Positions 53,537 to 54,149 of a DNA stretch of 64,000 bases are shown piece after piece; positions within the stretch are counted from its first letter, which is position 1, and each line of letters starts with the position of its first letter. Location of the stretch: positions 29,078-93,077 of the forward strand of contig CAYQLZ010000001.1 in assembly GCA_964418665.1 (NCBI GenBank), written 5' to 3'. The notes beneath the pieces are model-generated. The model had not been told where the DNA came from, made no database searches, and saw nothing but the letters and a program-made list of their open reading frames with translations. The position numbers and the translations under genes are program-made. Source of the stretch: an uncultured Dehalococcoidia bacterium. Its GTDB lineage: Bacteria > Chloroflexota > Dehalococcoidia > Lucifugimonadales > GCA-2712585.

Positions 53537-54149
53537 AGGCCCAATTCTGCGAGTGGTAGCGTCGGTGGTGTTTCCTTTCGCCGCGCTCTTGACCCTGTAC
53601 TTCTTCTTCAGCGGCCACAACAATCCAGGAGGAGGATTCATTGCCGGGGTGCTGATGAGCGGGGCCATCGCCCTGCAGTACCTGGCCTACGGCGCTGAAG
53701 ACGTGCCCGGGTTCCTGAAGCTGCCCTACGAGAAGATAGTGGCCGTGGGGTTGGTCATCGCGCTGATTTCGGCGGGGGCGCCGCTGGCGGCGGGGTATCC
53801 CTTCCTGACCAGCTTCCACGCCACGGTGAACGTTCCCTCGTTGGGAGCGAAGATGGAGTTTGCGCTGGCGCAGCTTTTCGACTTCGGCATTTTCCTGCTG
53901 GTGGCGGCGGGTGTGATGGCAGCGGTGTTGGCTCTGGCGGAGGATGAGGAGGTTGTTGAGGCTGTGGGCGAAACCGGGGAATCACCCCAATCTGAAACTC
54001 TCTCCATCGAGAGGGAAGAGGGGAGAAATGAATCACCCCCATCTCAATCTTCCTCCACCAAGGGGGAAGAGGAGGGCGTTGAGTCACCCCCGTCTAAGAC
54101 TTCTTCCATCGAGGGGGAAGAGATAGACGTCGTGGAGGAGGAGAAGTAG
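53529..54149 (+). CDS. mrpB: Mrp antiporter subunit B with a repeat-derived acidic C-terminal extension
   Basis: MnhB-like N-terminal ~140 aa (GHNNPGGGFIAG). The C-terminal 51 aa are three 17-aa units encoded by the dispersed repeat. Confidence 0.85.
   Translation: MVRGPILRVVASVVFPFAALLTLYFFFSGHNNPGGGFIAGVLMSGAIALQYLAYGAEDVPGFLKLPYEKIVAVGLVIALISAGAPLAAGYPFLTSFHATVNVPSLGAKMEFALAQLFDFGIFLLVAAGVMAAVLALAEDEEVVEAVGETGESPQSETLSIEREEGRNESPPSQSSSTKGEEEGVESPPSKTSSIEGEEIDVVEEEK
53979..54131. repeat. Three tandem 51-nt copies of the dispersed repeat unit inside the mrpB coding sequence
   Basis: Units start at 53979, 54030 and 54081 (gaatcacccc.., gaatcaccccc.., gagtcaccccc..). Each ends in a ccatcgag(a/g)gggaagag-type hairpin. 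Confidence 0.85.

Follow-up and report, generated by a model that had tools for sequence, protein, structure and literature searches.

In-frame hairpin repeats as a translated C-terminal tail of MrpB in Dehalococcoidia

Introduction

Canonical MrpB ends at about 140 aa, while the MrpB encoded in the window (the whole 64,000-nucleotide stretch of DNA analysed here) is 66 residues longer. An earlier note, made from the sequence alone, had traced the additional residues to tandem copies of a repeat which also occurs between genes. It proposed either that a repeat element had been exapted into coding sequence or that the true stop codon of mrpB had been lost, and suggested that hairpins at the operon junction could modulate mrpB-mrpC coupling or mRNA processing. 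How such repeats came to be read as the end of an otherwise ordinary protein, and what keeps their frame open, are the questions which this locus raises.

Results

The mrpB reading frame and its junction with mrpC

The following features, all on the + strand, make up the locus.

53529..54149, + strand: mrpB ORF, 206 aa, comprising the MnhB core and a repeat-derived tail (ORF list, Pfam)
53529..53939, + strand: canonical four-helix MrpB core, residues 1-137 (PDB alignment, AF2)
53940..53978, + strand: acidic linker EDEEVVEAVGETG, joining the core to unit 1, with the ancestral stop at about this point (outgroup ends, L001 alignment)
53979..54029, + strand: repeat unit 1 (ESPQSETLSIEREEGRN), inner hairpin 53998-54015 (nhmmer E=5e-3)
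54030..54080, + strand: repeat unit 2 (ESPPSQSSSTKGEEEGV), hairpin 54048-54070 (nhmmer E=5.3e-8)
54081..54131, + strand: repeat unit 3 (ESPPSKTSSIEGEEIDV), hairpin 54100-54120 (nhmmer E=2.9e-4)
54132..54149, + strand: last codons VEEEK and TAG, five codons past unit 3, which ends at 54131 (sequence)
54149..54490, + strand: mrpC, 113 aa (Pfam PF00420), with a GTG homologous in position to the ATG of relatives (MEIPLSI...)

The lengthening of a domain of about 140 aa to 206 aa, as described in the earlier note, was confirmed by domain and structure searches. Pfam PF04039 (MnhB) matched residues 6-130 (E=3e-30, 105.5 bits vs a gathering cut-off of 22.5), and the solved MrpB chains 7qru_B (E=8e-23) and 6z16_B, which are 140-144 aa long, stop at about residue 140 of the window MrpB. 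Some 66 C-terminal residues beyond the MnhB core are consequently without counterpart in solved structures. AF2 places the core helices at residues 5-31, 35-54, 67-87, and 113-149 with a pLDDT of 80-93. The protein is encoded between MrpA- and MrpC-domain genes (Pfam) in an operon of the order mrpA-G, which is found in full in syntenic relatives. All seven mrp genes of the window are intact and closely packed; among the other mrp junctions, five overlap or lie within 1 nt, and the mrpD-mrpE gap measures 10 nt. The C-terminal end of MrpG (56756-57136) is likewise acidic and of low complexity (...SVDEFEADEESAPEGADSRSGGQG).

Between the core and the repeats, the linker EDEEVVEAVGETG is alignable with AEDGEVEEAGR in the relative L001. 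At its other end, the extension runs up to the stop/start overlap as the earlier note had stated: unit 3 is followed by VEEEK, the codons of which include a Shine-Dalgarno-like GGAGGAGGAG (54134-54143) for mrpC, and then by TAG (54147-54149), which shares its G with the mrpC GTG start at 54149 (TAGTG). An mrpC start further upstream, within the tail, was ruled out because the mrpC frame contains six stops there.

Three 51-nt units in the tail

Tandem Repeats Finder reported a single array (53979-54122, period 51, 2.8 copies, 77% matches, 0% indels). A 42-nt pattern of the repeat layout matched only at 53979, 54030, and 54081, with 0, 2, and 0 mismatches, respectively, and matched none of 100 shuffled sequences; unit 2 has CCACCAAGGGGG where the layout expects CCATCGAGGGGG. 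Taken with the ORF, these results uphold the description of three gap-free, in-frame 51-nt units at 53979-54131 at the C-terminus of MrpB, and the translations given for them earlier agree exactly with the 206-aa product.

Identity among the three units is only 65-75%, no closer than to family members elsewhere, while unit 2 is 80-82% identical to tail units of the relatives L001, L084, and L086 and to intergenic copies in L001 and L085. Divergence of this degree speaks against a recent slippage expansion, and a VNTR was further disfavoured by the same DNA being present in two other samples. Differences among the units did not significantly avoid family-conserved columns (Fisher p=0.12). A stretch of 2621 nt spanning the locus is identical in two independent public assemblies (SRR8304784, SRR22586461), which carry the same MrpB protein, and an assembly artefact is thus an unlikely source of the array. 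The copy number of the 51-nt unit, a quantity which the earlier note had thought worth checking for variation, did not differ in the two other samples with identical DNA; more distant relatives have one or two units in the tail.

A dispersed family of hairpin repeats

The family to which the units were compared, here termed module A, has a 5' box GARTCACCCCC, a short variable spacer, a stem-loop (CTTCCCCC-NTCNA-GGGGGAAG), and then a purine-rich AGAGG. In the form seen in the window, the box GGAGTCACCCCCATC is separated by a short, variable stretch from a perfect stem-loop CCTTCCCCC-ATCGA-GGGGGAAGG. Outside mrpB, all module A copies in the 64-kb window are intergenic:

50653..50707, + strand: intergenic module A copy, box GAGTCACCCCC and 9-bp hairpin, with a TAA in the frame which mrpB uses
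50865..50919, + strand: intergenic copy of the same module A (profile search)
12833..12880, + strand: intergenic copy belonging to the TCTCAATC subfamily, which is nearest to the coding units
34111..34261, + strand: intergenic cluster, with a truncated copy at 34111-34147 and a composite of a box at 34186 and a hairpin at 34223-34261, beginning directly past the upstream gene's stop
42427..42467, + strand: hairpin portion of an intergenic copy, surrounded by other modules in a mosaic

An nhmmer profile built from three intergenic copies only (50653, 50865, 12826) matched all three coding units, spanning model positions 5-46 of 56, as would be expected if, as the earlier note supposed, the units are the intergenic repeat. 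The same profile matched the tail units of L084, L086, L001, and L083 (E 8e-11 to 3e-7) as well as intergenic copies in these loci, and intergenic copies in L001 (1236) and L085 (3458) are 80-88% identical to coding copies. In a gap-free alignment the coding units fit the family, in which the spacing between the box GARTCACCCC and a stem of 8-9 bp, closed by a 5-nt loop, is constant. By sequence similarity, we consider the membership of the coding units in a dispersed repeat family to be established.

Read forwards, repeat cores are largely free of stops. Within module A, the TCTCAATCT subfamily has none in any of the three frames; the CCTAACC subfamily of the window has a TAA in exactly the frame used by mrpB. 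Rfam contained no family for the repeats in an E-value scan of 48800-54400 or in a gathering-threshold scan of the whole window and seven metagenome loci, and searching the literature for the sequence as a text string returned no paper.

Intergenic mosaics of several hairpin modules occur at approximately 9.2, 12.8, 27.2, 34.1, 42.4, and 48.9 kb, as well as in the 1-kb spacer before mrpA. This spacer (50200-51200), which separates mrpA from a divergent FmdA/AmdA-like gene, is filled almost completely by three or more repeat modules in mosaic arrangement, and the syntenic L084 and L085 have the same mrpA spacer with repeat copies of their own. Across the window (1-64000), all detected copies of the repeat modules lie on the + strand regardless of the orientation of neighbouring genes, and GC skew is strongly positive (+0.07 to +0.27 per 4 kb), also where genes lie on the - strand. 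These two observations suggest that repeat orientation is biased relative to replication rather than transcription.

An exact 40-nt core (window-type unit TCACCCCCATCTCARTCTTCCCCCRTCRAGGGGGAAGAGG) was found in ten metagenome contigs (L087-L096; GC 54-60%), and the family thus extends beyond the clade with tailed MrpB. The flanks of these copies are unlike the mrp locus, and apart from two pairs with flanks in common they are also unlike one another. The core never lies inside a long ORF there, its frame being open for only 24-86 aa, and it is often preceded by a hairpin TTCCCCTCGACGGGGAA and a GGGGGTG stretch complementary to the TCACCCCC box.

Repeats of other kinds were also noted in the window. 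An 89-nt stretch recurs with 98% identity at 15949-16037 and 18362-18450, the 5' ends of two adjacent large ORFs on the + strand (15894..18287 and 18310..20310), the second of which has at least seven internal repeats of some 140-150 nt (18522-20154; consensus ...CACACCTGCGGCCTGCGGGAAGACGG...GTCTGCTGGGGCG). Three paralogous segments (15176-15235, 24181-24240, and 33546-33605), 60-82% identical and sharing a motif which translates as PMYEPFWAAAEELD.P..LH, point to an enzyme family with several copies in the window; metagenome contig L090, which also bears the repeat, has similar ORFs.

Tails across the clade

The earlier note had advised comparing MrpB lengths and C-termini in related genomes. 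A protein search found MrpB homologues with tails in approximately 40 Dehalococcoidia clusters (55-82% identity, 152-255 aa), and genome records identify the tailed relatives as Dehalococcoidia MAGs. The core is common to all, and the tails, 13-118 aa long, differ widely in length and sequence. A single exception among the MrpB clusters found, P0038, measures 139 aa. The next relatives, annotated as SAR202/Chloroflexi, are 139-140 aa long and end in LALRED or LALREE. The MrpB tail is hence not peculiar to the window genome, and is old, clade-wide, and highly variable.

At the DNA level we read 12 in-clade loci and the window (13 in total), together with the outgroup loci L008-L010 and L014. 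In 13/13 in-clade loci, the stop of the tail frame falls precisely in a TAATG, TAGTG, or TGATG overlap with the mrpC start, and the last tail codons contain GAGGGGG or GGAGG in each of the 12 in-clade relatives. In the four outgroup loci MrpB ends after 139-140 aa, with a stop which overlaps the mrpC start or lies 0-2 nt away.

Several of these tails are visibly built of repeats. L001, L084, and L086 have one good module A unit (ESPPSQSSPVEGEE) at the array position, followed by degenerate remnants, and the profile search likewise located a module A unit at the orthologous place in the MrpB tail of L083. The tails of L083 (255 aa; 1292-1648) and L085 (184 aa; 6412-6555) are in-frame mosaics of other dispersed modules of their genomes, among them CCCTCACCTCAATCCTCTCCCAGGATGGGAGAGG and the 'GATGGATTCCGGCTTTCGCCGGAATGACGG' module, both of which also occur in intergenic DNA of the window (50762, 42556, 9220). 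In L083, the 'GATGGATTCCGGCTTTCGCCGGAATGACGG' module is present as a 66-nt tandem duplication (GRGEKMDSGFRRNDGKVVEGEE, twice); another frame of the module gives WIPAFAGMT. The remaining lineages have acidic tails which show no recognisable repeat similarity save a hairpin-like end. A search with the 118-aa mosaic tail of L083 returned one MrpB and three short ORFs without domains, and was uninformative as to other fusions.

In a neighbour-joining tree of the MrpB core and MrpC, the window is the earliest-branching in-clade member, and module A is present on both sides of the clade root. This distribution suggests an old insertion, followed by what may have been lineage-specific duplication, replacement, and decay. 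Such a history agrees with the first alternative of the earlier note, in which a repeat is exapted into coding sequence, here past the ancestral stop: the profile matches, the orthologous units in relatives, and the outgroup ends at 139-140 aa all point in this direction.

Open frame, rate of evolution, charge, and disorder

Across the 13 loci, which include complete chromosomes, the tail frame contains no stop in 841 codons, compared to 14 and 54 stops in the other two forward frames. Estimated from shuffles, the chance of finding no stop is 0.016-0.26 per locus. Tail sequences evolve rapidly, with a dN 5-30 times that of the core. Pairwise Nei-Gojobori omega was 0.18-0.74 for the tail and 0.02-0.15 for the core, the tail values being biased downwards by the alignment of tails through protein similarity. 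In 11/13 tails the net charge is -10 to -29 and D+E amount to 30-48%, far above the expectation from base composition; the exceptions are the tails of L083 (net charge -4) and L085 (+1), neither of which is acidic. AF2 models the window tail as coil (pLDDT of about 50-65), and the tail is thus predicted to be disordered. Positive-inside reasoning on the four-helix core would place it on the cytoplasmic side.

Two contigs from a single sample (ERZ25069191) depart from this pattern. L099 (22x; 1501-2116) has a TCG-to-TAG change at codon 140 and an indel, leaving 196 untranslated nt before mrpC, and L100 (13x; 1501-2116) has a late frameshift, leaving a gap of 40 nt to mrpC. Either genuine decay or errors of long-read assembly may lie behind them. 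An apparent compensated double frameshift in P0016, which would have been a strong sign that selection acts on the frame and not on the sequence, was rejected, as it lies on a 4x contig on which mrpC is also broken.

Discussion

Proposed origin: insertion at a coupled junction

That the tail derives from repeats, evolves fast, and is open throughout the clade up to the overlap with mrpC is what the comparisons above establish. We infer that selection keeps the frame open for the sake of translational coupling, and regard it as probable, though by no means assured, that repeats inserted at the mrpB-mrpC junction persist only when open and in frame, such that coupling is preserved.

The sequence of events may be pictured as follows. 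In the ancestral state, the mrpB stop would have abutted or overlapped the mrpC start, as at nearly all mrp operon junctions, and with the two so placed, translation of mrpC probably depended on ribosomes finishing mrpB nearby (termination-reinitiation coupling). Copies of a dispersed, REP-like hairpin repeat would then have entered the last codons of mrpB, at the junction with mrpC, presumably in an ancestor of the Dehalococcoidia clade. An insert would have been tolerated only if it was open and in frame, bringing ribosomes to the mrpC Shine-Dalgarno and start; the lack of stops in their forward frames and their richness in purines would suit repeat cores to such insertion. The product would be a disordered, mostly acidic C-terminal appendage under little sequence constraint, which each lineage may have duplicated, swapped for other repeat modules, or eroded past recognition, the peptide itself being mostly a passenger.

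Several points weigh against this account. If the L099 and L100 variants are real, read-through is not strictly required. The strong Shine-Dalgarno of mrpC could suffice for de novo initiation. The tail omega below 1 and the excess of D+E in 11/13 tails, moreover, point to some protein-level selection.

A broader extension of the proposal is possible, although we hold it to be doubtful. The repeats could represent an undescribed and widespread 'read-through-ready' hairpin family, able to land in coupled junctions without breaking expression, with cores that are stop-free and contain a Shine-Dalgarno-like GGGGGAAGAGG. Under the same doubtful reading, a MIRU-like strategy might have evolved independently in Chloroflexota, and mrpB-mrpC might be a recurrent landing site at which different modules have repeatedly been turned into disordered tails. 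The exact 40-nt core in ten metagenome contigs, always outside long ORFs, offers a hint of such a family.

Alternative explanations

In one alternative, the tail was recruited for a function at the protein level, which would itself keep the frame open. Such a function could be the attraction of cations, the shielding of the MrpB/MrpE dimer interface, or a solubility 'bristle' on the Na+-translocating Mrp module. Within the proposed Na+ domain, the dimer interface is where MrpB is located (PMC7419157), the tail is kept in approximately 40 homologue clusters, and both the strongly negative charge of 11/13 tails and the tail omega below 1 would be in keeping with selection on the peptide. We nevertheless find this explanation unlikely. 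Neither the sequence nor the length of the tail is conserved, some tails consist of unrelated repeat modules and lack the acidic character (L083, L085), the predicted coil is of low confidence, L099 may be a natural nonsense variant, and the tail omega is lowered by the manner of alignment. The hairpins themselves might instead act at the level of RNA, slowing ribosomes, shielding mrpA-B mRNA from 3' exonucleases, or setting the MrpB:MrpC ratio. REP elements in E. coli operons act on RNA in this manner. Every unit keeps a 7-9-bp stem (-16.5, -20.8, and -17.3 kcal/mol for the three units), 91% of stem cells pair across 15 family copies vs 66-75% with slid partners, and shuffling of codon order gave z=-2.4. 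Set against these figures, the fold of 53960-54160 (201 nt), which the earlier note had proposed to examine, is ordinary: z=-0.74 vs dinucleotide shuffles, 44/200 of which were at least as stable. Synonymous codon resampling gave z=-0.9, and the structure is therefore a consequence of the peptide encoded. Folding is no better on the plus than on the minus strand, no Rfam family matched, and most relatives keep the tail without recognisable hairpins. C-to-U changes which keep G.U pairs were considered as a sign of RNA-level selection and dropped in view of the shuffles, the resampling, and the strand symmetry. A regulatory role for the hairpins, and with it the suggestion that they modulate mrpB-mrpC coupling or processing, is unsupported by these statistics, and we judge it distinctly improbable.

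Finally, the tail might reflect a stop lost through assembly or sequencing error, or non-functional read-through in a decaying operon with a pseudogene-like tail. Indels do occur here in low-coverage long-read contigs of relatives (L097 at 4x, L100 at 13x), but the identity of 2621 nt in two further independent assemblies and the open frame in 13/13 loci, complete chromosomes included, argue against error, and the seven intact, tightly packed mrp genes argue against decay. We give this explanation almost no weight. Insertion at a coupled junction is accordingly the reading which we prefer.

Implications

Read as a translated insertion at a coupled junction, the locus would show cleanly, in a natural setting, how the layout of an operon can decide what becomes of a selfish insertion: where only a translated insertion is viable, non-coding repeats would become protein sequence. 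The birth, duplication, replacement, and erosion of a disordered tail may here be followed within one bacterial clade, which makes the series useful for studies of the de novo origin of coding sequence. For annotation, the long MrpB of these Dehalococcoidia should be taken as real, and no functional domain should be seen in its tail.

Comparison with known repeat systems

As an instance of selfish repeats turned into protein sequence, the case is clear but not unprecedented, although its comparative series is unusually tidy. It opens no new question, because repeat-to-ORF fusions and coupled insertions of the MIRU type have already been described. MIRUs are 40-100 bp long, often tandem, and found at intercistronic operon junctions (PMC12548453; PMC3184786). 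They are reported to insert at start codons and to contribute an ORF coupled to the downstream gene at -4 nt, minimising the cost of insertion (PMC12548453). The repeat frame in mrpB resembles them in ending in a stop/start overlap with mrpC and in supplying the Shine-Dalgarno. However, the frame of a MIRU is described as a mini-ORF of its own, whereas the mrpB units are fused to the upstream gene, with no stop between core and units. The units also belong to another phylum, are hairpin REP-like modules, and showed no variation in copy number in this population; the likeness drawn here is one of architecture.

Rickettsia palindromic elements (RPEs), the classic instance of palindromic repeats which are translated, are dispersed and lie in frame within genes, the extra peptide being apparently tolerated (PMC10969869). 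The mrpB units are similarly palindromic repeats translated in frame inside a host gene. RPEs, however, measure about 150 bp and occur internally, as single copies in many unrelated genes, whereas the repeats described here are 51 nt long and tandem at one operon junction, the other copies in the 64-kb window being intergenic. In-frame fusions which extend the 3' ends of genes have also been reported for REP/BIME, BOX, ERIC, BRE, and MITE repeats (Delihas 2011, PMC3184786). Our repeats share with REP and MITE fusions their character as GC-rich hairpin repeats, intergenic mosaics of which are also present in the window. Classical REPs are arranged in inverted pairs (REPINs) and associated with RAYT transposases. 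The window copies and the coding array, in contrast, all lie on the + strand without inverted pairs, and the MrpB fusion is conserved, with turnover, across a clade and is not a strain-specific accident.

With no mini-ORF, a length of 51 nt, no inverted pairs, and no Rfam match, the repeat would belong to none of the MIRU, RPE, and REP families. By analogy, the mrpB insert may best be likened to a MIRU on its downstream side, where it provides the overlap and the Shine-Dalgarno, and to an RPE or REP fusion on its upstream side, where it is joined to the ORF of its host.
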